From assembly GCA_963802415.1 (NCBI GenBank), contig CAWDIH010000001.1, positions 2,633,000 through 2,696,999 on the forward strand: a stretch of DNA of 64,000 bases. The letters run 5' to 3'. Made by a program: the position numbers and the translations under genes. Origin of the DNA: an uncultured Acidimicrobiia bacterium. GTDB taxonomy: Bacteria > Actinomycetota > Acidimicrobiia > Acidimicrobiales > JACDCH01. The notes under the pieces are model-generated. The model saw only the letters and a program-made list of their open reading frames with translations. It was not told where the DNA came from and did no database searches. Below, in pieces: positions 23,081-34,445 of the stretch (position 1 is the first letter of the stretch; every line of letters starts with the position of its first letter).

Positions 23081-23629
23081 TCAGAGTGTCTTGAACGCAG
23101 GAAGCGTGGCGTCCTTCTCGGAGATCTGTGAACGATCGTCGACGTCGACCGGCAGCGGCCACTCGATACCGAGTGCGGGATCGAGAGGATTGACCGCAGT
23201 TCCCGCCATGCCCGGAACCCATTCGTTGTCGAAGCAGTACAGGTACTGCGTGGGTGCGTCGCCGAGCGATTGGAAGCCGTTGCAGACGCCCTTCGGAACG
23301 AGCACCTGCTTTCCGGCCGTCAGACGCACCGTGGCCACCTGCCCGTACGTCGGCGACTCGGTGCGCGCGTCCACATACGCGCCGAACGCTTCACCGCTCG
23401 CTACCGCGACCAACTTGTAGATCTGCTCGCCGTGCAGTCCCCGCACCGCACCCGGCTTCGTCTCCGTGATGTTCACCTGCAGCCACGGCCCGAGCGACGG
23501 CAAACCCATCTCCGTCCAGGCGGACTCACGGTAGAACTCACGCACCACGCCCCGGTCGTCCTCGACCTGCTTCATCGTTATGACCACGAGGCCCTCGATC
23601 TCGGTCTCCTCGACCGCCATGTCTGTCAT
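23081..23629 (-). CDS. dTDP-4-dehydrorhamnose 3,5-epimerase-like cupin (RmlC family)
   Basis: ATG 23629 in ORF 23081..23929. DDRGVVREFYR and RGLHGEQ resemble RmlC motifs. 182 aa. Confidence 0.7.
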   Translation of the reverse strand: MTDMAVEETEIEGLVVITMKQVEDDRGVVREFYRESAWTEMGLPSLGPWLQVNITETKPGAVRGLHGEQIYKLVAVASGEAFGAYVDARTESPTYGQVATVRLTAGKQVLVPKGVCNGFQSLGDAPTQYLYCFDNEWVPGMAGTAVNPLDPALGIEWPLPVDVDDRSQISEKDATLPAFKTL

Positions 23630-23700
23630 CCGCACCCCCATTAGCTTCCTCAGACAGGGGCCGAGGTTAGAACCCGGCGCTCGCACGTCAGTCCGCGGCA

Positions 23701-23747
23701 ACCATCGTGCATTGACACGTCTACCGGCTGAGTCAATGCACGATGGT
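23701..23747. repeat. 47-nt palindromic element, copy 1 (arms ACCATCGTGCATTGAC / GTCAATGCACGATGGT, 15-nt spacer)
   Basis: Perfect 16/16 inverted repeat read directly. It lies in the divergent spacer between the RmlC-like gene and the DUF559 gene, 28 nt before ATG 23775. Confidence 0.8.
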
Positions 23748-23774
23748 CGGCTGTGGGGAGCCGAGCCCGGCTCG

Positions 23775-24740
23775 ATGTCACACCCTGTCGGCAGGATGGC
23801 GCTCATGTTCGACCATTCCTTCGACCGCCGCATCGAGATGTTGGCTCGACGGCAGTGCGGCGCGTTCAGCCATGCGCAACTCATTCGAACCGGCGGATCC
23901 GACGAGATGCTCGCCACACGGATACGCACGGGCCAGTTCCTCCGGCTCGATGCGGCTGTGTACGCGCTCGCTTCGTATCCGGGCAGCTTTCACCGGCAGT
24001 GCTGGGCCGCCGTTCTCGGTACGCCTGGCGCGGCACTCGGGGGTTTGGCCGCTGCTCATCTTCTGGCGTTCGCCGGTTTCGCACCAGGACGTCCGGAGAT
24101 CGTCGTCGGCCCGACCGGAAACGCCCGAAGTGCAATCGCAGTGGTGCGCCGGTACGAGAAGCCTGCTTTGACCAATGTCGATGGTCTTGCGATCACGACG
24201 CCGGCGCAGACGCTCTTCGACATCGCGTCGAGAGTCACCATCGACCGGCTCGAGCGCACCGTCGACGACCTGCTTGTGGCGAGACGGATCACAGTCGACG
24301 AGCTCGACGAGCGACTTGCGTTCTACGAGGACACTCGTCGCGCTGGCATGCGAGTCATGCGGCCGCTGATCGCGGACCGGCGTGCCGAGGGTTTCGTCCC
24401 GCCCGCGAGTGAGCTCGAGCGGCGCGCCGACCGCATTGTTCGCCGGCTCCAGGGCAAGCCTCGTGTGGAAGTCGAGGCGAGCTTCGCTTGGCTCGATCGT
24501 GGCCGAGGACGGGTCGACCGCTATCTCCCCGACGAAGGCATCATCCTCGAGTTCGACGGGCGACGCTGGCACACGAGAGTTGCCGACTTCGATCGCGATC
24601 GATGGCGCGACGCCCAGGCCGTCGCGGCGGGACTCGTACCACTCCGGTTCACATACGCGCACGTCACGACACGACCGACCGAGGTGCTCGAAGTCATCGA
24701 GCGGACGCGCCGAGTCCGACGCCGTCGTTCCGCCGCTTGA
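23775..24740 (+). CDS. AbiEi-like wHTH N-domain plus C-terminal DUF559 (Vsr/PD-(D/E)xK-like endonuclease fold) protein
   Basis: N-terminus RRQCGAFSHAQLIRTGGSDEMLATRIRTGQFLRLDAAVYAL (AbiEi_4-like). C-terminus ILEFDGRRWHTRVADFDRDRWRDAQAVAAGLVPLRFTYAHV (DUF559-like). ATG 23796 is an alternative start. Confidence 0.75.
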   Translation: MSHPVGRMALMFDHSFDRRIEMLARRQCGAFSHAQLIRTGGSDEMLATRIRTGQFLRLDAAVYALASYPGSFHRQCWAAVLGTPGAALGGLAAAHLLAFAGFAPGRPEIVVGPTGNARSAIAVVRRYEKPALTNVDGLAITTPAQTLFDIASRVTIDRLERTVDDLLVARRITVDELDERLAFYEDTRRAGMRVMRPLIADRRAEGFVPPASELERRADRIVRRLQGKPRVEVEASFAWLDRGRGRVDRYLPDEGIILEFDGRRWHTRVADFDRDRWRDAQAVAAGLVPLRFTYAHVTTRPTEVLEVIERTRRVRRRRSAA

Positions 24741-24746
24741 CGCCCG

Positions 24747-24793
24747 ACCATCGTGCATTGACGCGCCTACTGGACGTGTCAATGCACGACAGT
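24747..24793. repeat. 47-nt palindromic element, copy 2 (left arm identical to copy 1, right arm GTCAATGCACGACAGT, 15-nt spacer)
   Basis: Starts 6 nt after the DUF559 gene stop and ends 82 nt before the flavodoxin-like start. Shares a 3' tail with copy 1 (GTCG..GTGG..GGG). Confidence 0.8.
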
Positions 24794-24874
24794 CGCAGTG
24801 GTGGGGTGTCGGGGACGCGTCGCGGTGACGCTGGACGGTCGGTGGCGCACACACCTCTGCTAGAACGACCGGCG

Positions 24875-25303
24875 GTGAGGGTGGTGGTGCTGTACGAGTC
24901 GATGACGGGGAACACGCGTCGTGCGGCCGAGTTGATCGGTGGGGCGGTTGCGGCGACGGGTGCCGAGGTGTCGGTGTACCCGGTCACGAATCCGGATCTG
25001 CACCGACTCTCGGTTGCCGACCTCGTGTTCGTCGGCACTTGGGTCGACGGGCTCGTCCTGTTCGGACAGCGGCCTGGCCGCGCCACCCGCTTGTGGAACC
25101 TGCCGGTGCTCGACCACAAGCCTGTGGCCGTGTTCTGCACGTACGCGATCAACGCGGGGAAGGCGCTCGACAAGACGGTCGCGATCCTCGAAGCGAAGGG
25201 CGCTCGCGTCGTCGGCCGCCGTCAGTTCCGGCGTGACCGCATCGAGCAGGGTGTCCAGGAATTCGTCGACGACGTCCTGCAGTCGGTGCCGGCCCGCCCA
25301 TAG
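24875..25303 (+). CDS. flavodoxin-family protein
   Basis: VVVLYESMTGNTRRAAE FMN-loop motif at the N-terminus. GTG 24875 was chosen within ORF 24488..25303; the start is uncertain within a few codons. Confidence 0.65.
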   Translation: MRVVVLYESMTGNTRRAAELIGGAVAATGAEVSVYPVTNPDLHRLSVADLVFVGTWVDGLVLFGQRPGRATRLWNLPVLDHKPVAVFCTYAINAGKALDKTVAILEAKGARVVGRRQFRRDRIEQGVQEFVDDVLQSVPARP

Positions 25304-25310
25304 CGGGCTC

Positions 25311-26609
25311 CTAGCGGGAACAACTCCTCGTCACCCGGTACACCTGGTACGCGGCGTTCGTGTCGACCGGTTGCACCGCGACGCCGTTGACGCAGCTGGA
25401 ACCGCCCCACGCCAGGTCGTCGAGCAGCTCCTGTTCGTTCGTCCTGAACTTCCGGTACCGAGGGTCGACTACCACGTAGTCGACCCGCCGGCGAGTGAGG
25501 AACCGGGCATAGGCCGCCTCGTCCCGGAAGCTCCGCCGGTACATGCTCTCGGGGAAGAACTCGGAATCGATCCGTCCGCCGGCGCGAACGATCGAGTACT
25601 GGCCGTACTTCGCGTCGCCGAAGGCGAGCACGCGGTACGTCGCGCCGGGAACGAACGCGGACGACTCGGAGAACGCGCTCACCGAGTTGGTCGGCCGCCG
25701 ATTGAGCGCACTCCATCCCGCGGCCATCCCGGAGAACGGGACGGTCACGAGCTGCGAGAGCACCATGACCCCCGCGAGCACCATGGGTGCGCGCCGCCGC
25801 CAACCCGAGCGCTGCACCGACACCAACGCCATCGGGACGAGGAACACCAGCGACCGCAGCGCGACGGTCTCGAACTCGATCCACACCGTGTAGAGCAGCG
25901 AGTTCTGCGAGGCCACGGGGGAGGCAAATACCAGCACTGCCGCCGGCAGGGAGATAACGAGTGACACCAACCATCCGACCACCAATGCCCGCCGGTGTGG
26001 CTCCCCTCGGTAGCGCAGGACGACGAGCAGCGCAGTCAAGGGAACCAGCACCGCCGCGTGCGTGAGCTGCGCGAGCCCGGCGAGGACGACCGCGAGCTTC
26101 CGCCGATCGCGCCGCCAGCACCCGACCGCGAGCATCAGCATCGCTGCCGCCCACAGGAACGGCAGCTGCCCGAGGAGCAGGGCTTCGACGAGGGCGGGAT
26201 TGACGAGCACCGCCACGGCCCACCAACCGCGCCGCAGCTCCGGGAAGGTCCAGAACGTAGACAGCACCAGCCCCACGAAGCCGGCACCGAGCACGAAGGT
26301 CACGCTCCACTCACCCATGAGCGGCCACAGCAGGACCGCAACCATCCAAGGGATGAACGCGTAGGGGAACGCGAGCGCACTTCCGTGTGCGAGGACCGGC
26401 ATGTGGAACGGCAGGCCGTTCCCGTGCCACAGCTGTTGGGACACGAACCACACGTGGATGTAGTTCGACAGCGTGTCGCTCGAGATCACCTCGCGGTGAC
26501 GCAGGAGCAAGCCGAGGATCACGAGCCAGACCGCGATCACGACCGATCTCGCGGACGCGACCACTGCGTTCGACGCGCAAGTTGACCGGTGCCTCGGCAC
26601 TACCGTCAT
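25311..26609 (-). CDS. polytopic membrane protein with C-terminal soluble domain (possible GT-C-type glycosyltransferase)
   Basis: 432 aa with about 9-11 hydrophobic segments followed by a ~120-aa hydrophilic tail. Lies in a sugar-modification cluster. No diagnostic motif recognised. Start is uncertain because it overlaps the divergent gene. Confidence 0.55.
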   Translation of the reverse strand: MTVVPRHRSTCASNAVVASARSVVIAVWLVILGLLLRHREVISSDTLSNYIHVWFVSQQLWHGNGLPFHMPVLAHGSALAFPYAFIPWMVAVLLWPLMGEWSVTFVLGAGFVGLVLSTFWTFPELRRGWWAVAVLVNPALVEALLLGQLPFLWAAAMLMLAVGCWRRDRRKLAVVLAGLAQLTHAAVLVPLTALLVVLRYRGEPHRRALVVGWLVSLVISLPAAVLVFASPVASQNSLLYTVWIEFETVALRSLVFLVPMALVSVQRSGWRRRAPMVLAGVMVLSQLVTVPFSGMAAGWSALNRRPTNSVSAFSESSAFVPGATYRVLAFGDAKYGQYSIVRAGGRIDSEFFPESMYRRSFRDEAAYARFLTRRRVDYVVVDPRYRKFRTNEQELLDDLAWGGSSCVNGVAVQPVDTNAAYQVYRVTRSCSR

Positions 26610-26615
26610 CGGCCG

Positions 26616-27848
26616 ATGCGATGGCCGTCGCGAACTTCAGCTTCATCGCCGACGGCCCGTTCGATCGCTGTTGGTCACGGAATCGCCGCGCTGGGAGCGG
26701 TGTTGTTCGCGTCGGCTACGGGCAGCAGCGCGCTCAGCACGGTTTCGGTCACGACCGCGTCGCTGCTGATCGCCGCGATTTCCGCACGCGCCGGCGCCTT
26801 GTCGGTGCGGCGCGCCGCGCTGGTACCCGTCGGCGTCATTGCGGTAGGAGTGGCGTGCGCGTTGCTCGCGGTCACGTTGCGCGGCGTGATCACGCTTCCG
26901 ATAGCCGCGGTGCTCGGTGTCGGCATCGGCATCGCGATGCCCGACGTCGAGGGTCTCGATCGCCGCACGATCGGTCTCGGCGTCGTCGCCGGCGTGCTCG
27001 AGTTGACCGTCTGCGCGCTCATCGGCGGGCGCGTCGCCGGACTCTGGTGCGTCGCAATCATCGGCCTCGGTGTCGGTGTGGTGTCGATCGCCGCCGCGCC
27101 GCGCGAACACGCCGATCTCGGGCGCGTCGGCCTCGCGCTCGTCACCGCGACCGCGCTGCTCGCGGGTGGGCTCGTGGCGTGGGTGGGGGCGAACGATCCC
27201 ACCGTCGAGTGGTTCGGCAACGTCATCGCGCACGGTGACCGCTCGCAGCCGCGGGTGGCGCTCACGTTCGATGACGGGCCAGATGATCCTTACACCATGT
27301 CGGTGGCCGGCATTCTCGACAATCGCGGCGTGAAGGGAACGTTCTTCGAGGTGGGCAACGCGATCGATGCGCGCCCGGACATCACCCGCGCCCTGCTGGC
27401 CGATGGCCAGCTCGTCGCGAATCACTCGTACCACCATGACTATTGGCGTTGGCTCGATCCTCGTTACCCGGAGCTCGACCGCACCCAGGAGGCCTTTCAA
27501 CGGGCCGTGGGCAAGTGTCCCGCGTTCTTCCGACCCCCACACGGTCAGCGCACGCCGTTCATGCTCGCACAGGTCCGGGCCGAGGGCATGCATGCAGTGA
27601 CCTGGGATACCTCGGCCAAGGACTGGGTCGAGCGCGATGGAAGGGTCGTAGCCGACCGCATCGTGGACCGAGCGCGTCCGGGGTCGATCATCCTGCTGCA
27701 CGACGGCCTCGACGGCAGCGTCGACGCTGATCGCTCGGTGCTGTTGACGGCTCTTCCGCTCATCATCGACGGTCTACGCGCCAAAGGTCTCGAACCGGTG
27801 CGGCTGGACGATCTGCTCGGTCTGCCCGGCTACCTCGACCGGTGCTGA
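26616..27848 (+). CDS. membrane-anchored polysaccharide deacetylase (NodB homology domain)
   Basis: N-terminal half has about 6 TM segments. The C-terminal half has NodB motifs ALTFDDGP, HSYHH, RPPHG and LLHDG. ATG 26616 lies inside ORF 26589..27848. Confidence 0.8.
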   Translation: MRWPSRTSASSPTARSIAVGHGIAALGAVLFASATGSSALSTVSVTTASLLIAAISARAGALSVRRAALVPVGVIAVGVACALLAVTLRGVITLPIAAVLGVGIGIAMPDVEGLDRRTIGLGVVAGVLELTVCALIGGRVAGLWCVAIIGLGVGVVSIAAAPREHADLGRVGLALVTATALLAGGLVAWVGANDPTVEWFGNVIAHGDRSQPRVALTFDDGPDDPYTMSVAGILDNRGVKGTFFEVGNAIDARPDITRALLADGQLVANHSYHHDYWRWLDPRYPELDRTQEAFQRAVGKCPAFFRPPHGQRTPFMLAQVRAEGMHAVTWDTSAKDWVERDGRVVADRIVDRARPGSIILLHDGLDGSVDADRSVLLTALPLIIDGLRAKGLEPVRLDDLLGLPGYLDRC

Positions 27849-28686
27849 GCCCGACGAAGGAGGCCGCGGAGAGTCGCCAGACCGGTCACCGCGGCTGCGG
27901 CCGTGACCGCCAGCGGCGGCGCGAGGCTCGGTACCTCTTTGCCCGGCGGACGTCGCACCGTGACACGAAACGCCGCCATGGGGATCGCAGCAAGATCGAT
28001 GAACACATCCACCATGCGCGTGCGGCTTCGATACACGGGTACCGGCACGAGCACGTCGTTGCGCACGCGGTAGCCGAGCCGGCAGAGCACAACCGCCACT
28101 TCGACCGTCTCCGAGTACTTGTACCCGCGGTAGTACGTCGAGCGCGTCGGCGAGCGCTCCGAGCCGGAAGATGCGGTAACCGGACTCGACGTCGTGCAGA
28201 CGGTGACCTGCCCACAGCGTTGCCCACGCCGAGAGCAGTCCATTGCCCGCTTGCTTGTACGGCGGGTACGTCGACAGGTCCCGACGAACGAGCAGGGCGT
28301 CGAGCTTCTCGTCGACCGCGCGCCGGTGCAGGTCGTCGATCACGTCGAGGTCGTGCTGTCCGTCCGCATCGACCGTGAACACGAGGTCGTCGGGCGAGAG
28401 CTCGCCATCGCGCATTCGCCGGCGAAGGTCGGTGAACGCGAGGTAGTAGGCGGCCGACATGCCTTGGTTCTCGTCGAAGCAAAGGAGCCGCGGCATGGTC
28501 GTGCCGCGGCAGCCACGCTTCGATCTCGTCCCGCGTGCGATCCGTCGAGCCATCGTCGACGACGACGAGCTCGTCGACGAAGTAGCTCAGCTTGTCGAGC
28601 ACCTGCGCGACGGTGGGTTCCTCGTTGTACGCGGGAACGACCGCTATGCGGCGGGTGCTTCCAGGCCGGTCGGAGTCAGGAAGCAC
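27830..28686 (-). pseudogene. family 2 glycosyltransferase (polyprenyl-phosphate sugar synthase/ArnC-like), two frameshifts (near 28500 and 28137)
   Basis: Three frames carry RIAVVPAYNEEPTVAQVL..VVVDDGSTDRT, then PRLLCFDENQGMSAAYY..VDADGQHD..ESGYRIFR, then YYRGYKYSETVEVAVVLCRLGYRV plus a hydrophobic tail. Confidence 0.75.
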
Positions 28687-28689
28687 CGG

Positions 28690-29658
28690 CTACTCCTCGG
28701 TCAACCCGACGTGGCGCGGCTGTGCCGTGGCAGCGCGCTCGCTCGCTTCCGCCGCTTCGAGCGCCTGGTACCACGCGTAGGTGCGGGCGAGTCCCTGCGT
28801 GAACGTGGTCGCCGGCTGCCAGCCGAGCACGTCGCGCGCCTTGTCGTTCGAGACGACCCGAGCCTTGAGATCGCCGGGGCGCGCCGGTCCGAACTCGACG
28901 GAGCCCGAACCGACCAGTGAGCACACCGATTCCGCGATCTCTCGGATGCTGACGGGAGAGGCTCCCTCGATGTTGAACGTCTCGTTCGCCGCCACGTCGT
29001 CGAGCGCTCTCACATGTGCCTGCGCGAGGTCTTCCACGTAGACGAAGAAGCGTTGCTGGCTCCCGTCACCATCGATGCGCAGCGGTTCGCCGCGCAGGCA
29101 TCGCTTCAGGAACGCGGCCACGACACAGTTGTCACGCATGCGCGGCCCGTAGGGGATGCCATATCGCAGGATCGTGTACGGCCGCCCGTAGAGCGTGTGG
29201 TAGTCGCGGCACGCCATCTCGGCAGCCACCTTCGATGTCACGTACAGGTGGCGATCGGTGTTCGGGTCGAACGTCGTGTTCTCGTCGACGACGTCAGCCG
29301 TGGTCGCGGCGTACACCCACACCGTCGACGCGAGCACGACTCTCCCTGCTTCGGCTCGCCGTGCGGCCTCGAGTACGCGCGCCGTGCCGAGCGTGTTGAC
29401 CTGGATCGTGAGCGTCGGATCCACGATCACGTCGTTGACGTCGGCGATCGCGGCGAGGTGGAAGATGACTTCGGATCCCGTGAGCGCAGTGGTGAGGCCG
29501 TCCGTGTCGAGCACGTCGACCGGCACCCACTCGGCGTCGGCGCGGTGCGGTGGCTTGGGGTCGAGCACGCGGACGGTGCAACCGGCATCGAGGAGCGCGT
29601 CGACGACGTGCGTCCCGATGAAACCGGAACCCCCGGTGACGGCGACGAGTCTGTGCAA
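28690..29658 (-). CDS. NAD-dependent epimerase/dehydratase (extended SDR)
   Basis: VTGGSGFIGTHVV Rossmann motif and YVTSK catalytic motif. 322 aa. Confidence 0.85.
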   Translation of the reverse strand: MHRLVAVTGGSGFIGTHVVDALLDAGCTVRVLDPKPPHRADAEWVPVDVLDTDGLTTALTGSEVIFHLAAIADVNDVIVDPTLTIQVNTLGTARVLEAARRAEAGRVVLASTVWVYAATTADVVDENTTFDPNTDRHLYVTSKVAAEMACRDYHTLYGRPYTILRYGIPYGPRMRDNCVVAAFLKRCLRGEPLRIDGDGSQQRFFVYVEDLAQAHVRALDDVAANETFNIEGASPVSIREIAESVCSLVGSGSVEFGPARPGDLKARVVSNDKARDVLGWQPATTFTQGLARTYAWYQALEAAEASERAATAQPRHVGLTEE

Positions 29659-29671
29659 CGTGGATCCTTTG

Positions 29672-30856
29672 CTACGAGGGGGCAGCGAGTCGATCGAGTG
29701 CGGCGCGGAGCGACGTGACGACGTGTGCAGCTTGTTCGTCCGTCATCACGGCTGACACCGGCAGGCAGATGTGTGACGCGCAGAGTTGCTCGGCGCCGGG
29801 CAGCGGCCGGTCGACCCACGGCGCGAACACTGGTTGCGCGTGCAACGGGAGCTCGTACACCTCGCCGGACAGGCCGACGCCGTAGTCCTGTCGCATCAGC
29901 TGCCTGAGCTCGGATCGGTCGACGCCGTCGGGCAGGAAGGCGATGTACTTGTAGTAGTTGCACACCGCGCCTGTGGGGACGTCGAGCGACGTGAGCGGAA
30001 GCTGAGCCAACCCGTCGTCGTAGATCTTGGCGATGCGCTGACGGTGTGCGATGAACTCGTCGAGCCGGCCGAGTTGGCTGAGCGCGATCGCCGCGTGCGG
30101 CTCGCTCATCCGCCAGTTGTAACCGAGGTGGGTGTGGACGTTCGCGGTGAAGCTCGCCTTGCCTTGGTCGCGGTAGATGCGCGCTTCGTCTGCGATGGTG
30201 TCGTCGTCGGTGAGGATGATGCCGCCCTCGCCGCCGGCCATCACTTTCGTGGGGTAGAAGCTGAACGAGCCGGCGATGCCGAACGTGCCGGCCATGCGGT
30301 CATCGAGCGACGATCCGTGTGCATGCGCCGCGTCTTCGAAGAGGAAGATCCCACGCTCGTCGCACAAGTGGCGAAGCTCGTGGATGGCGGGCGTCACGAG
30401 ACCGCCGATGTGCACGACCACGAGCCCGGCCGTGTCGGGTCCGATGGCGCCAGCGACGTCACTCGGATCGACTGCCATCGTGGCGGGGTCGCAATCAACG
30501 AACTTCGGTCGTGCTCCAGCGGCGACGACCGCGGCAGCCGTGGCGAAGAACGTGTTGGCCGGGACGAGGACCTCGCGACCGTCGACCGACTGTCCGAGGG
30601 CTGCCATGCTCCGCAACGGGATCTCGATCGCGCTGGTTCCGGAGTTGACCGCCACCGCGTGCTTGGAACCATGGTGGGCTGCGAAGCGCTCCTCGAGCTC
30701 GCGGCCGATCTCTCCAAGTGTGAGCTGTCCCGTGGTGAGAGCCTCGTCGATGCGTCGAAGGATGTCGGCGCGGTCCTCGGGTGGGAAGTGGACCTTCGCT
30801 GGCGGCACGGACAGAGCGGGCGTTGCCGCACCGGACGGGGCGCTGGGAGCGGTCAT
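29672..30856 (-). CDS. DegT/DnrJ/EryC1/StrS-family sugar aminotransferase
   Basis: 394 aa. FEDAAHAHGS and SFYPTKVMAGGEGG (PLP-lysine region) are typical of the family. Confidence 0.9.
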   Translation of the reverse strand: MTAPSAPSGAATPALSVPPAKVHFPPEDRADILRRIDEALTTGQLTLGEIGRELEERFAAHHGSKHAVAVNSGTSAIEIPLRSMAALGQSVDGREVLVPANTFFATAAAVVAAGARPKFVDCDPATMAVDPSDVAGAIGPDTAGLVVVHIGGLVTPAIHELRHLCDERGIFLFEDAAHAHGSSLDDRMAGTFGIAGSFSFYPTKVMAGGEGGIILTDDDTIADEARIYRDQGKASFTANVHTHLGYNWRMSEPHAAIALSQLGRLDEFIAHRQRIAKIYDDGLAQLPLTSLDVPTGAVCNYYKYIAFLPDGVDRSELRQLMRQDYGVGLSGEVYELPLHAQPVFAPWVDRPLPGAEQLCASHICLPVSAVMTDEQAAHVVTSLRAALDRLAAPS

Positions 30857-31061
30857 CGTGTGCTTCGACTCTAGTTTGCTGAACCGCCGCGACCGCTGAT
30901 GCGCCGGCGACGAGGTCGCGTCGGGGGAGCGTGCTCAAGTGTTCTCCGGCGGCCACTCGACCGTACATGATCGGCCATCCGAACCCCGGTCGCCACGCGG
31001 CTCGGAATCGGTTCGTCACAGGATGGTGACCTCGGCTCCGATGCGTCGTAGTCTTTGAGCC

Positions 31062-31244
31062 GTGCTCGTCGAGCGGTGCTGGATCTGCTTGGAACAGCCC
31101 GCCGTCACGACGGTGGAAGCGGCCGACGGCCGGCGTTATCCGGCGTGCGATGTCTGCGCGGTCGAGCACCCGAACGGCCCGCCGCGCGACCGGGGAACGA
31201 TCACCGACGACGATCTCCGACGCATCGTCGGCGACACCGCCTGA
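31062..31244 (+). CDS. small hypothetical zinc-ribbon-like protein (CxxC-N19-CxxC)
   Basis: 60-codon GTG ORF with strong GC3 bias. CWIC...CDVC spacing is typical of a zinc ribbon. No convincing SD. Lies directly upstream of the methylase. Confidence 0.35.
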   Translation: MLVERCWICLEQPAVTTVEAADGRRYPACDVCAVEHPNGPPRDRGTITDDDLRRIVGDTA

Positions 31245-31285
31245 CCGCTACTCGTCAGCGATCCGTGACTCATGTCGGTGTCGCA

Positions 31286-31322
31286 CGTGCGTCTGCGTGT
31301 CAAAACGACACGTCAATGCACG
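31286..31322. repeat. degenerate third copy of the palindromic element (right arm GTCAATGCACG intact, left arm about 7/11)
   Basis: Exact 11-mer GTCAATGCACG at 31312-31322, 21 nt before the methylase ATG. The left half CGTGCGTCTGC only partly matches CGTGCATTGAC. Confidence 0.4.
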
Positions 31323-31343
31323 GGCGATCCCTAGAAGCCACCA

Positions 31344-32488
31344 ATGGATCGGTCCTGGCTCGTAACGTTTCGGTCGGTGATCAAGTACCTCGGGTCGAAG
31401 CGTCGTCTGGTGCCTGCGCTCACTGCGATCGCGCACGCGTCGGGCGCGCGCACTGCGCTCGATCTGTTCACGGGCACGACGCGGGTCGCGCAAGCCTTCA
31501 AGTCGTGCGGGATCGAGGTCACCGCAGTCGACAGCGCTCGGTACGCGGCAGCGTTCGGCCAGTGCTACATCGCGACGGACGCGGATGCCGTCGACCACGG
31601 CGAGCTTGCACGCCTGATCACCCGGCTCGACGCGCTCGCGCCGCAGCCGGGGTACGTGACTGAAGTCTTCTCGGGCAAGGCGCGCTACTTACGGCCGCAG
31701 AATGCCGCACGCGTGGACGCGATCCGAGACGCCATCGATCGCGAGTGGCGGGGGCATCGGTACGAGCCGATCCTCCTCACGAGCCTGATCGAGGCCGCCG
31801 ATCGAGTCGACTCCACCACAGGTGTGCAGATGGCGTTCGTCAAGCAATGGGCACCTCGCTCGCAACAGGTGCTCGAGCTCCGCCTGCCGTCACTGCTTCC
31901 CGGCCGCGGGCATGCGATGCACGGCGACGCCTGCGAGGTAGCGGCAAGGCGAAAGCACTTCGATCTCGCCTATCTCGATCCGCCCTACAACCAGCACCGC
32001 TACACCGCCAACTACCACGTCTGGGAGACGTTGGTCGCCTGGGACGCGCCGTCACACTACGGCGTCGCGTGCAAGCGCAACGACCTCCGTGATCCATCTA
32101 CGCGATCCGTTTCAACTCGCGACGCACCATGCCCGACGCGTTGCACAAGGTGATCGAGGACTTGGACACCGACCTGTTGGTGGTCTCGTGCTCGAATGAG
32201 GGATGGGTCGACATCGAGGAGCTGCAGGCATGGTGCCGGCCGCGCGGCCATGTCGAAGTGATCGCGTTCGATTCCCGTCGTTACGTCGGCGCTCAGATCG
32301 GTGTGTACAACCCGCGAGGCGAACGCGTGGGGGAGGTCTCACATCTCCACAACGTCGAGTACCTTGTTCTGTCCGGTGAGCGTGGGCTCGTTCGACGCGC
32401 CGCTCAATCGAGCAGCGAGCTCACCAATGCGTCGACGTCGGCGAGCGGCTCGTCGACTGCGCTCGTTGGCGCACCGGCTGCCGGCTGA
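31344..32488 (+). pseudogene. D12-class N6-adenine DNA methyltransferase (Dam-like), one frameshift near 32093-32110
   Basis: VIKYLGSKRRLVPAL (SAM motif) and LDPPYNQHRY (catalytic DPPY) are in ORF 31344..32153. The C-terminal part (FNSRRTMPDAL..LLVVSCSNEGW) is in ORF 32129..32488. Confidence 0.8.
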
Positions 32489-34445
32489 AGGTCGTCGCAA
32501 GCACGCGCATCTCCCTCGTGAGTCATCGTCGCGACCACCGCGTCGGTGAGGAACCGGCTGCGTTGTCCGAAGACGTGGCGGTCGCTCAGCCGCGCCCGTC
32601 CGAGGCCCGTGTGATAACGCAGCGGCAGGTAGCACCACAGGCGGTCCCGTGCGCGCGTCATCGCGACGTAGAGCAGCCGACGCTCCTCTTCGATGGCCGC
32701 GTCGTCACCAGTGGCCATGTCGGACGGCAGGTTGCCGTCGGTCACGTGGATGACGTGGACGCACTGCCACTCGCCGCCCTTGGCGGAGTGGATCGTCGAA
32801 AGCGTCAGGTAGTCGTCGTCGAGGTGCGGCGGTCCCGCCAGCTCGCCGGTGGCGGACGGCGGATCGAGGACCAACTCCGTCAGGAACCGCTCGAGGCTCG
32901 GCGCCTGCGACGCGGCCTTGCCCAGCTCCTCGAGGTCCGCCAGTCGCGCCGATGCATTGCGATAGCGGGCATCGACCCGATCGTCGAGCCACGTTCGCAC
33001 TCGTTCGACGACGGCACCGGGCCCGGCCTCGCGATCGAGGCGCCGCGCGTCGGTGACTGTGATCAGCAAGGCATCACCGGCTTCGGGCAGTGCGCCTGCG
33101 GACAGGTTCGCGCCTGTCGATGCGAGCCGGCGCGCGGTCGCGGGACCGATGCCGTCGACGAGCTGCAGCACGCGGAACCACGCCAGCTCGTCACTCGGGT
33201 TCGCGACGATGCGCAACAGGCACAGCAGGTCCTTCACGTGTGCGGCCTCGAGGAACCGGAGCCCGCCGAACTTGACGTACGGAATGCGGCGGGCGGTGAG
33301 CTCGAGCTCGAGTAGGTCGCTGTGGTGCGCGGCGCGGAACAGCACGGCTTGGTCGTGCAAGGCCACGCCGCGCTCGTACTCGTCGACGATTCGTCCGCAC
33401 ACGGCCGCCGATTGCGCACCCTCGTCGGCGCACGACACCAGCGCCGGTGCTGGTCCGTCGGAACGCGTCGACCACAAGGCCTTGTCGTGCTTGTGCTCTG
33501 CTGCTGCCTCGGCCATGACCGCGTTGGTGGTGCGCAAGATTGCCGGCGTCGACCGATGGTTGCGGTCGAGCACGACGACGTCGCGCGCCGAAGCGCTCGG
33601 GGAACTCCAGGATGTTGCGTTGGGTGGCGTTGCGAAAGCCGTAGATCGCTTGTGCGTCGTCACCGACCGCGGTGATGGCCGCCCCTCCGGTCGCTAGCGC
33701 ATGGAGAAGGTCGGCCTGCTGCGTGTTCGTGTCCTGGTACTCGTCGACGAGCACGTGGTCGAACTGCGCCCGCAACGCCGGCGCCGCGGACGATTGCAGG
33801 AGTGACGACCATCCGAGCAGCAGGTCGTCGTAGTCGAGGACGTGCGCGGCGCGTTTGCGGGCCCGGTAGGCCTCGAAGGTCGCGCGCAACTCCTGGCGTT
33901 CTTCGACGCACCACGGGAAGGAGTCGCGCAGCACTTGCGACAGCGGCGTCGACGTGTTGACGACGCGGCTCAGGATGGCAGCCATCGTGTCCTTCTTGGC
34001 GCGGCGGCGGGTGGCGTCTGGCGTTTCGGACAGGTCGGCGCGCACCAGCGCCAACAGGTCGGCGGTGTCTGCTTGATCGAGCACGGTGAACGCGGGATCG
34101 AGCCCGAGCGCCCAACCGTGCCGGCGCAGCAGCCGGTTGGCGACCCCGTGGAACGTGCCACCCCACGTGCGGCGGGCGACATCGCGGCCCGCTTCGGCTT
34201 CGGCCCTGCGTAGCAGTTCGGCGGCGGCGCGCCGGCTGAACGTGAGCAACAGGATCCGCTCGGGGGGCACGCCGCCGCTCGACCAGCGCCGCAACTCGGG
34301 AGGCCAGCGTCGTGGTCTTGCCGCTGCCGGCGCCCGCCACGATCAGGAGGTGCCCACTGTCGTGCGCGACCGCAGCGCGCTGCTGTTCCGTCAGACCAAA
34401 CACCTGTTCGACAGTACAACGAGGTTGGAGTTGGCGGGGGGACAT
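32404..34445 (-). pseudogene. UvrD/PcrA-type superfamily 1 DNA helicase, two frameshifts (near 34280 and 33590)
   Basis: AGAGSGKTTTL, VDEYQDTN, LDRNHRS, TIHSAKGGEW and LYVAMTRARDRL are spread over three frames (ORFs 33660..35297, 33191..34294 and 32404..33663). ATG at 34445. Confidence 0.8.

Follow-up and report, generated by a model that had tools for sequence, protein, structure and literature searches.

The window analyzed here, a stretch of 64,000 nucleotides (nt) from an uncultured soil bacterium of the Acidimicrobiia (assembly GCA_963802415.1, contig CAWDIH010000001.1, positions 2,633,000 to 2,696,999), holds at positions 25,311 to 30,856 five contiguous genes. They encode a DegT-family aminotransferase, an extended short-chain dehydrogenase/reductase (SDR), a family 2 glycosyltransferase (GT2), a polytopic protein carrying a CE4/NodB deacetylase domain and a polytopic membrane protein predicted to adopt the GT-C glycosyltransferase fold. 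Taken together with their homologues, these genes appear to form a conserved cassette for adding an amino sugar to the cell envelope by way of a polyprenyl-phosphate carrier, a reading to which we assign a probability of about 0.68. An earlier, sequence-only reading of the same stretch had proposed an Arn-like module for a lipid-linked aminosugar modification, possibly inactivated by frameshifts. The logic of that proposal is largely right, but the orthology to Arn and the meaning given to the frameshifts do not hold. No description of this gene set in Actinobacteria or Acidimicrobiia was found in the literature.

Conservation of the five-gene set

When 185,579 species genomes were scanned, 79 loci were retrieved, distributed among Acidimicrobiia, other Actinomycetota and Chloroflexota (Dehalococcoidia, Tepidiformaceae and Anaerolineaceae). 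Of these loci, 67 extend far enough upstream to be counted, and in 61 of the 67 the NodB gene divergently adjoins the GT-C gene. Among the 41 loci with ample flanks, all four partners of the GT-C gene were detected at stringent scores in 30, some of them in seven and none in four; at least three of the four partnerless loci are second copies, in genomes which carry a full cassette elsewhere. The full cassettes display eight different gene orders. Moreover, in 10 loci of the Chloroflexota type, the GT2 and a GT-C paralogue (about 30% identical, same family) share a single reading frame, producing fusion proteins of about 685-700 amino acids (aa), and long fusion-like forms of 650-880 aa are also present in a representative library. 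A shuffled gene order with preserved gene content, combined with a natural fusion, constitutes strong evidence that the five proteins work together. Comparative genomics of the five-gene set, proposed earlier as a check, was thereby carried out, and the set is kept across phyla in several orders. Within the Acidimicrobiia, the GT-C family occurs in 25 of the 401 genomes sampled and in 15 of 178 genera, a patchy spread of the kind expected of an accessory envelope trait.

Two kinds of accessory genes recur inside the cassette. An OmpR-type regulator and a histidine kinase are present in 14-16 loci, mostly of the Chloroflexota type; most of the GT2::GT-C fusion loci (L025, L038, L044, L047, L058, L060, L063, L073, L077 and L078) carry this pair. 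A transporter of the EamA/NIPA type, belonging to the DMT superfamily, lies inside the cassette in 13 loci (L017, L018, L033, L045, L056, L059, L062 and six more). ArnE/F are members of the same superfamily, and this transporter is for that reason a candidate flippase.

Further genes of interest were observed near members of the family. In a 66%-identical relative (L001, 11836-15409), the cassette is followed by another group of genes for envelope glycosylation, which encode a GT-C enzyme of the PMT_2 family (436 aa), a 219-aa GT2, a DUF2304 protein and an Acyl_transf_3 protein; the pair formed by the 219-aa GT2 and the DUF2304 protein resembles PpgS/Rv3632. In a single lineage (L016, 9971-13603; L019; L041), lone GT-C paralogues immediately precede the gene for a class A penicillin-binding protein, the other four genes not being nearby. 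This arrangement may hint at an acceptor related to peptidoglycan.

The encoded enzymes and the proposed pathway

The membrane protein, 432 aa long as an open reading frame (ORF) of the window, has no match in Pfam or NCBIfam. A total of 459 homologues were found, most of them of about 444 aa and all lacking both a name and a Pfam domain. Pfam searches with 38 family members returned no match at E <= 0.01, a lone member displaying a faint match to EpsG (E 0.037), and a scan of 1.84 billion representatives with a hidden Markov model of the family retrieved only 332 clusters, with no spill into known families. The fold could nevertheless be recognized from an AlphaFold2 (AF2) model of good quality (predicted local distance difference test score, pLDDT, 85.8; predicted TM-score, pTM, 0.85). 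When this model was compared to 350,542 PDB chains using Foldseek, the first five ranks were occupied by GT-C enzymes, namely ArnT (5f15 and 5ezm), ALG12 and AglB (two entries), with the GT-C enzymes EmbB and PglB among the lower-ranked matches. The ArnT matches have E values of 6.5e-4 to 1e-3, and for the search the Foldseek probability is 1.00 and the TMq values are 0.48-0.50. The structural check proposed together with the sequence-only reading was therefore favorable, with ArnT as the top solved match: as judged from its model, the membrane protein is of the GT-C fold, yet stands outside every GT-C family described in Pfam or NCBIfam.

Residue conservation points in the same direction. The acidic loop residue anticipated for a GT-C enzyme is present as D45 (SSD motif, ...EVISSDTLSNY...), invariant in an alignment of 38 sequences, with identities as low as 44%, and positioned directly past the first transmembrane (TM) helix, between helix 12-37 and the juxtamembrane helix 44-61. 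The same alignment shows E124 and a DSEFFPES block to be likewise invariant, and the C-terminal soluble domain contains an invariant cysteine pair (C406 and C430). The true N-terminus of the protein (MKLKFATAIASADDGS... / MKLKFATAIASADDGSAEAP...) is encoded upstream in another frame, from the ATG at 26646, which provides the revised start called for earlier. Linkage to, and in-frame fusion with, a GT2 resembling PpgS and dolichyl-phosphate-mannose synthases (DPM) suggests, indirectly, that the GT-C protein may use a polyprenyl-phosphate-linked donor.

In the assembled sequence the GT2 gene is interrupted twice, one surplus G being present near 28492 and another near 28140. When the intact 280-aa GT2 of a relative is aligned to it, residues 6-64 are matched in frame 3, residues 66-182 in frame 1 and residues 183-277 in frame 2, with 82-88% identity, and the motifs DDGS, DADGQH(D/E) and ESGYR are invariant in the orthologues. 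The NCBIfam models matching most of the catalytic domain are PpgS (the best, 1.3e-10), AglJ and a dolichyl-phosphate hexose transferase. Matches to PgaC and GpgS are confined to the N-terminal nucleotide-binding part, and ArnC is matched at E 7e-3 and 15 bits, far below the equivalog cut-off of 529. The GT2 thus resembles the polyprenyl-phosphate sugar synthases and is a likely enzyme of this kind, membership in any of these families not being claimed. Both its proposed polyprenyl type and its hydrophobic tail, which is seen at the C-terminus, agree with the sequence-only reading.

The PgaC match also bears on another explanation, according to which the locus would be an exopolysaccharide system of the poly-N-acetylglucosamine (PNAG), Pga or Ica type, comprising a processive GT2, a polymer-deacetylating NodB protein and an export or polymerase membrane protein. 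The match of the PgaC/IcaA model to the GT2 N-terminus, the frequent action of CE4 enzymes on polymers and the EpsG match of one GT-C family member would be in keeping with such a system. However, the PgaC match is limited to GT2 residues 16-84, the protein of about 284 aa has a single C-terminal TM helix where processive synthases have a multi-TM channel, the membrane protein matches GT-C enzymes instead of export proteins, and the DegT and SDR genes would be left without a role. A PNAG-type system is accordingly considered highly improbable, and an exopolysaccharide synthase was rejected as an assignment of the GT2, which is too small and matched by PgaC at its N-terminus only.

The NodB protein is, as first noticed from the sequence, a deacetylase fused to TM helices. 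Its PF01522 match (86.7 bits, cut-off 23.1) covers aa 216-336, behind 6-7 TM helices, which are also drawn in the membrane half of the AF2 model (pLDDT 86.6). All five CE4 motifs (TFDDG, HSYHH, RPPHG, DW and LLHDG) are invariant in 32 sequences. The nearest relatives of the domain, in sequence and in structure, are peptidoglycan N-acetylglucosamine (GlcNAc) deacetylases, acetylxylan esterases and chitin deacetylases; the first of these provide the top Foldseek matches (TMt 0.87 to Bc1960), and the models of PdaB, NodB and PgdA are matched at 1e-27 to 1e-37. For ArnD, neither a model match to the domain at E <= 0.1 nor a structure among the top 50 Foldseek hits was found. Loop charges averaged over 32 homologues are negative for TM1-2 and positive for TM2-3 and TM6-7, which places the catalytic domain outside the cell. 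The invariant cysteine pair C301/C410 of the domain, C410 being the last residue of the protein, and the matching pair in the tail of the GT-C protein fit this location. An outward-facing catalytic domain is on these grounds probable. The ArnD-type deformylase assigned earlier could not be retained, the domain being a canonical CE4 of the PgdA/NodB type, without a match to ArnD and, unlike ArnD, predicted to face outward.

The same observations could be taken to mean that the NodB protein is an independent peptidoglycan or GlcNAc deacetylase which is merely adjacent to the other genes, or that it acts on a finished polymer and not on a lipid-linked sugar. Its closest relatives are indeed peptidoglycan GlcNAc deacetylases, a name also given to its homologues in the sources, and an outward orientation would suit such a role. 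An independent enzyme is nevertheless unlikely, as the divergent NodB/GT-C adjacency is maintained across phyla while the other genes shuffle, and the membrane half possesses conserved motifs of its own (TPRG and GxGxG) which suggest a role at the membrane. We therefore favor a deacetylase belonging to the cassette, which may nonetheless act on the sugar once transferred.

The DegT protein matches PF01041 with 329.7 bits (cut-off 19.8) and is intact in the window. Its pyridoxal-phosphate (PLP) lysine (FYPTK) is invariant in the orthologues, in place of the histidine of the dehydratase members. Its best NCBIfam and PDB matches are C4/C3 nucleotide-sugar aminotransferases, none of them above the equivalog cut-off; ArnB reaches 164 bits against a cut-off of 631. 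The closest solved relatives of the SDR are UDP-glucose 4-epimerases and UDP-glucuronate decarboxylases (E about 1e-36), with 7YS8 and 8VR2 among the nearest structures. STVWVY (TVW) and YxxxK are invariant in the SDR orthologues, STVWVY being aligned opposite the STSEVY/F of human UXS1 and 8vr2. The SDR contains neither the TSE acid signature of the ArnA/UXS decarboxylases nor the TDE of the RmlB dehydratase, and looks epimerase/oxidoreductase-like. The ArnA role attributed to it earlier is not supported, since the invariant STVWVY in the place of TSE misfits a decarboxylase. Naming the sugar by homology was abandoned, as both proteins match enzymes of many different specificities with comparable scores.

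The proposed pathway can be summarized as follows. The first, cytoplasmic step would be the conversion, by the SDR and the DegT protein, of a nucleotide sugar to a nucleotide amino sugar, which may keep the N-acetyl group of a UDP-N-acetylhexosamine (UDP-HexNAc) precursor. An acetyl group of this origin would explain most simply, as in the Flm/Lgm and galactosamine (GalN) schemes discussed below, why the cassette needs no acyltransferase; in line with the sequence-only reading, no formyltransferase domain of the ArnA type was found in the five genes or in the examined flanks. The small membrane-tethered GT2, given its family resemblance and the GT2::GT-C fusions, would then load the sugar on polyprenyl phosphate. 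The lipid-linked sugar would be flipped, a candidate in some relatives being the EamA/DMT transporter of the cassette. The polytopic CE4/NodB protein, its catalytic domain probably outside, would remove the acetyl group to leave a free amine, and the GT-C-fold enzyme would finally move the sugar to an extracytoplasmic acceptor such as a wall glycopolymer, a lipoglycan, peptidoglycan or a protein. If the DegT protein contributes an amine of its own, the product could, speculatively, be a diamino sugar.

A more specific version of this scheme can be offered tentatively, with lower odds than the pathway itself. The cassette would then be a self-contained and undescribed envelope-cationization system of soil Actinomycetota and Chloroflexota, made of a new GT-C family and an outward polytopic CE4 enzyme. 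The latter would bind the flipped sugar, of the polyprenyl-phosphate-HexNAc type, through its TPRG/GxGxG domain, perhaps help to flip it, and deacetylate it just before transfer, which is the step missing from the mycobacterial GalN pathway.

A number of points weigh against the cassette acting as outlined. The SDR lacks the residues for releasing a 4-keto sugar, either by decarboxylation or by 4,6-dehydration, which leaves the supply of the keto substrate of the aminotransferase unaccounted for. The match of the GT2 to PpgS amounts to 41 bits for a cut-off of 370, and all the family matches of this protein are far under the equivalog cut-offs. This copy encodes no flippase, and no homologue of the EamA-type transporter was found in this genome at E < 1e-5. 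The orientation of the CE4 domain is derived from the positive-inside rule and from cysteine conservation, and AF2 draws residues 116-160 as a single long helix; one TM helix at this place would reverse the orientation. The structural match of the membrane protein to ArnT, although consistent, is modest (E 6.5e-4, TM about 0.5), and an hhalign comparison to a neighboring PMT_2 protein gave a probability of 1.8%, with no link to PMT_2/ArnT at the sequence level. Finally, every carrier genome found is a metagenome-assembled genome (MAG).

Frameshifts, locus layout and surroundings

In addition to the two frameshifts of the GT2, which are present in the assembly as reported earlier, a third was found at about 26553, where an extra G puts the first 31 codons of the GT-C gene out of frame. 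Since the assembled sequence does hold three frame-breaking insertions inside the module, the cassette could be regarded as a decaying pseudogene cluster in which the frameshifts are real and the module inactive, as the earlier reading had considered. An independent metagenome contig of the Joint Genome Institute (JGI; L083, 8271 nt), 98.6% identical over 24607-32842, argues otherwise. All of its genes are intact (GT-C 444, NodB 381, GT2 284, SDR 322, DegT 394 and D12 methylase 370 aa), and at precisely the positions of the three shifts (26553, 28140 and 28492) the window has one G more than this contig. The inserted bases aside, the GT2 shows two synonymous and no non-synonymous differences, and internal stops are absent.

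Genes outside the module are affected as well. The D12 adenine methylase at 31377-32410 (+) is read in two frames, a T being missing from a T-run at 32110 by comparison with the JGI contig, and a UvrD-type helicase at 32407-34427 (-) is read in three. The essential rpoB gene, located outside the window on another contig (C2, 79139-82586), is split over two frames near 80937-80944, which points to indel errors across the whole assembly. Completeness is estimated at only 88.6% in this assembly of 3 contigs, a value in keeping with marker genes disrupted by indel errors in many places. Given that rpoB, the helicase and the methylase are affected too, the shifts in the module are likely due to errors of assembly. 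We conclude that the three frameshifts of the module are very probably assembly errors, which would make the cassette probably functional, and that a pseudogene cluster is quite unlikely; the presence of the GT2 frameshifts stands, the inactivity of the module very probably does not. Frameshifts in this assembly, including that of rpoB, should not be taken for pseudogenes. In each of the three insertions the extra G follows a C, with CG-rich sequence around it (CGC[G]G, GTC[G]A and CGC[G]G); a systematic base-calling or polishing error, as opposed to a homopolymer error, may be their origin.

The window has a G+C content of about 67% and sits on contig C1 of the 5.1-Mb, 3-contig genome. The homologues of its proteins stem from Acidimicrobiales/Acidimicrobiaceae MAGs, and the host is accordingly a member of the Acidimicrobiia (Actinomycetota), as the actinobacterial appearance of the sequence had suggested. 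All five genes lie at the positions assigned to them in the sequence-only reading (Table 1).

Table 1. Coordinates of the cassette genes and of the adjoining features in the window
Feature	Position	Strand	Basis
DegT/DnrJ/EryC1-family PLP sugar aminotransferase, 394 aa	29672..30856	-	Pfam PF01041, E 3e-98
Extended SDR, 322 aa, epimerase/oxidoreductase-like active site	28690..29658	-	Pfam PF01370, E 3e-51
GT2 glycosyltransferase, ~284 aa if read through 3 frames; one C-terminal TM helix	27830..28686	-	Alignment to intact GT2
Polytopic (6-7 TM) protein with C-terminal CE4/NodB deacetylase domain	26616..27848; ORF 26589-27848	+	Pfam PF01522, E 1.5e-24
GT-C-fold membrane glycosyltransferase (predicted), ~444 aa	25311..26646; ORF 25311-26609 = 432 aa	-	AF2 + Foldseek
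Divergent NodB/GT-C start region: 31-nt antisense overlap or ~55-nt spacer, depending on NodB start	26616..26703	.	
Flavodoxin-like gene, convergent with GT-C gene, outside core	24875..25303	+	Pfam Flavodoxin_3/_1

The minus-strand run formed by the DegT, SDR and GT2 genes is tight, with gaps of 13 nt and then 3 nt, and the convergent GT2 and NodB genes overlap by 19 nt at their 3' ends. The NodB and GT-C genes diverge from 26616-26703, their ORFs abutting head to head as originally described. The NodB start is probably either the ATG at 26616, with a 31-nt overlap with the GT-C gene, or the GTG/TTG at 26700/26703, with a spacer of about 55 nt; a further alternative is the GTG at 26589. In the gene calls of relatives, spacers of 56, 62 and 73 nt are observed, along with one call giving a 1-nt overlap. 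An Rfam scan of 24500-31500 returned zero matches.

Beyond the GT-C gene, the flavodoxin-like gene adjoins the cassette only in the closer Acidimicrobiales relatives (L001-L013) and is a lineage-specific neighbor, not a core member. It is followed outward by a DUF559/AbiEi-like gene at 23580-24740 (+), flanked on both sides by repeated sequence, and by a gene for a dTDP-4-dehydrorhamnose 3,5-epimerase (RmlC-like cupin, PF00908, E 1e-37) at 23081-23620 (-), whose proximity to the module is not kept in relatives.

Comparison with known systems

In its logic the cassette is like the Arn, Flm/Lgm and mycobacterial GalN systems and, as judged from the sequence comparisons, is a member of none of them. 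Arn (PmrHFIJKLM) is the lipid A aminoarabinose pathway of Gram-negative bacteria (PMC4402001). Both gene sets comprise a DegT aminotransferase, an SDR, a GT2 loading polyprenyl phosphate, a NodB-fold de-N-acylase and a GT-C transferase, and the OmpR-type two-component pair of the Chloroflexota cassettes recalls the control of arn by PmrAB. It could thus be asked whether the cassette is a true Arn orthologue making undecaprenyl-phosphate-4-amino-4-deoxy-L-arabinose, with the NodB protein as an ArnD-type deformylase. The one-to-one correspondence of the roles, ArnT as top structural match and the weak matches to the ArnB and ArnC models speak for it. Orthology is nevertheless very improbable. 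The cassette has no formyltransferase and no ArnE/F, and its SDR contains an invariant TVW in the place of the TSE of ArnA/UXS, without the decarboxylase Ser-Glu. Its deacylase is PgdA-like, with PdaB/PgdA/NodB models at 1e-30 and none of ArnD at E <= 0.1, has 6-7 TM helices and probably works outside, whereas ArnD works on the cytoplasmic face. The GT-C family has no PMT_2 match and no detectable sequence relation to ArnT, and the Actinomycetota and Chloroflexota hosts are expected to be devoid of lipid A. The role-for-role match to Arn proposed earlier is therefore valid as logic and not as orthology, the ArnA and ArnD signatures being absent.

The Gtr system consists of the GtrA flippase, the GtrB GT2 and a GtrC-type GT-C enzyme. 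Here also, a small GT2 charges polyprenyl phosphate and a polytopic GT-C protein transfers the sugar outside the cell, but Gtr includes a GtrA flippase and has no sugar-modifying enzymes or deacetylase. Another parallel is offered by FlmF2-NaxD-FlmK of Francisella and LgmABC of Bordetella, which place GalN or glucosamine on lipid A: a GT2 makes polyprenyl-phosphate-HexNAc, a NodB-family deacetylase converts it to polyprenyl-phosphate-hexosamine and a GT-C enzyme performs the transfer. The cassette shares this three-gene GT2/NodB/GT-C core, for which no separate acyltransferase is required. It differs by the added DegT and SDR genes and by another GT-C family, the Flm/Lgm systems being directed to lipid A with orthologues of ArnC and ArnT (FlmK of Francisella is cited in PMC4402001).

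In the Gram-positive Clostridioides difficile, the HexSDF/HexRK system combines a glycosyltransferase, a polysaccharide deacetylase, a flippase and two-component control to produce a cationic amino-sugar envelope lipid (PMC10128005). The use of a glycosyltransferase and a deacetylase toward an amino-sugar envelope product in a Gram-positive host is, as predicted for the cassette, common to both. The HexSDF product, however, is a diradylglycerol glycolipid obtained from an enzyme of the monogalactosyldiacylglycerol (MGDG) synthase type, without a GT-C protein, a polyprenyl carrier or an aminotransferase (PMC10128005).

The addition of GalN to arabinogalactan in mycobacteria and corynebacteria involves GalE1 (Rv3634c), PpgS (Rv3631) with Rv3632, and the GT-C enzyme Rv3779 (PMC9671496, PMC7502851), and requires the lipid-linked HexNAc to be flipped and deacetylated by factors yet to be named (PMC9671496). 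The likeness to the mycobacterial polyprenyl-phosphate-GalNAc logic pointed out in the sequence-only reading is well founded: the logic is the same and PpgS is the best NCBIfam match of the GT2. By proposed role, both systems have an Actinomycetota host, a GalE-like SDR, a PpgS-like GT2, a GT-C transferase and a sugar ending as a free amine. The differences are that the deacetylase is here included in the cassette together with an added DegT protein, and that the core has no DUF2304 partner of the Rv3632 type. If the proposed pathway is correct, the strategy shared by Arn and GalN, that of an amino sugar delivered by a lipid carrier, reaches uncultured soil Acidimicrobiia and Chloroflexota. 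The cassette also defines a predicted GT-C family absent from Pfam and NCBIfam and supplies it with a functional context in the form of conserved partners and GT2 fusions. The polytopic membrane-anchored CE4 protein would, in the same case, be a candidate type of enzyme for the lipid-linked deacetylation step of the mycobacterial and corynebacterial GalN pathway (PMC9671496).

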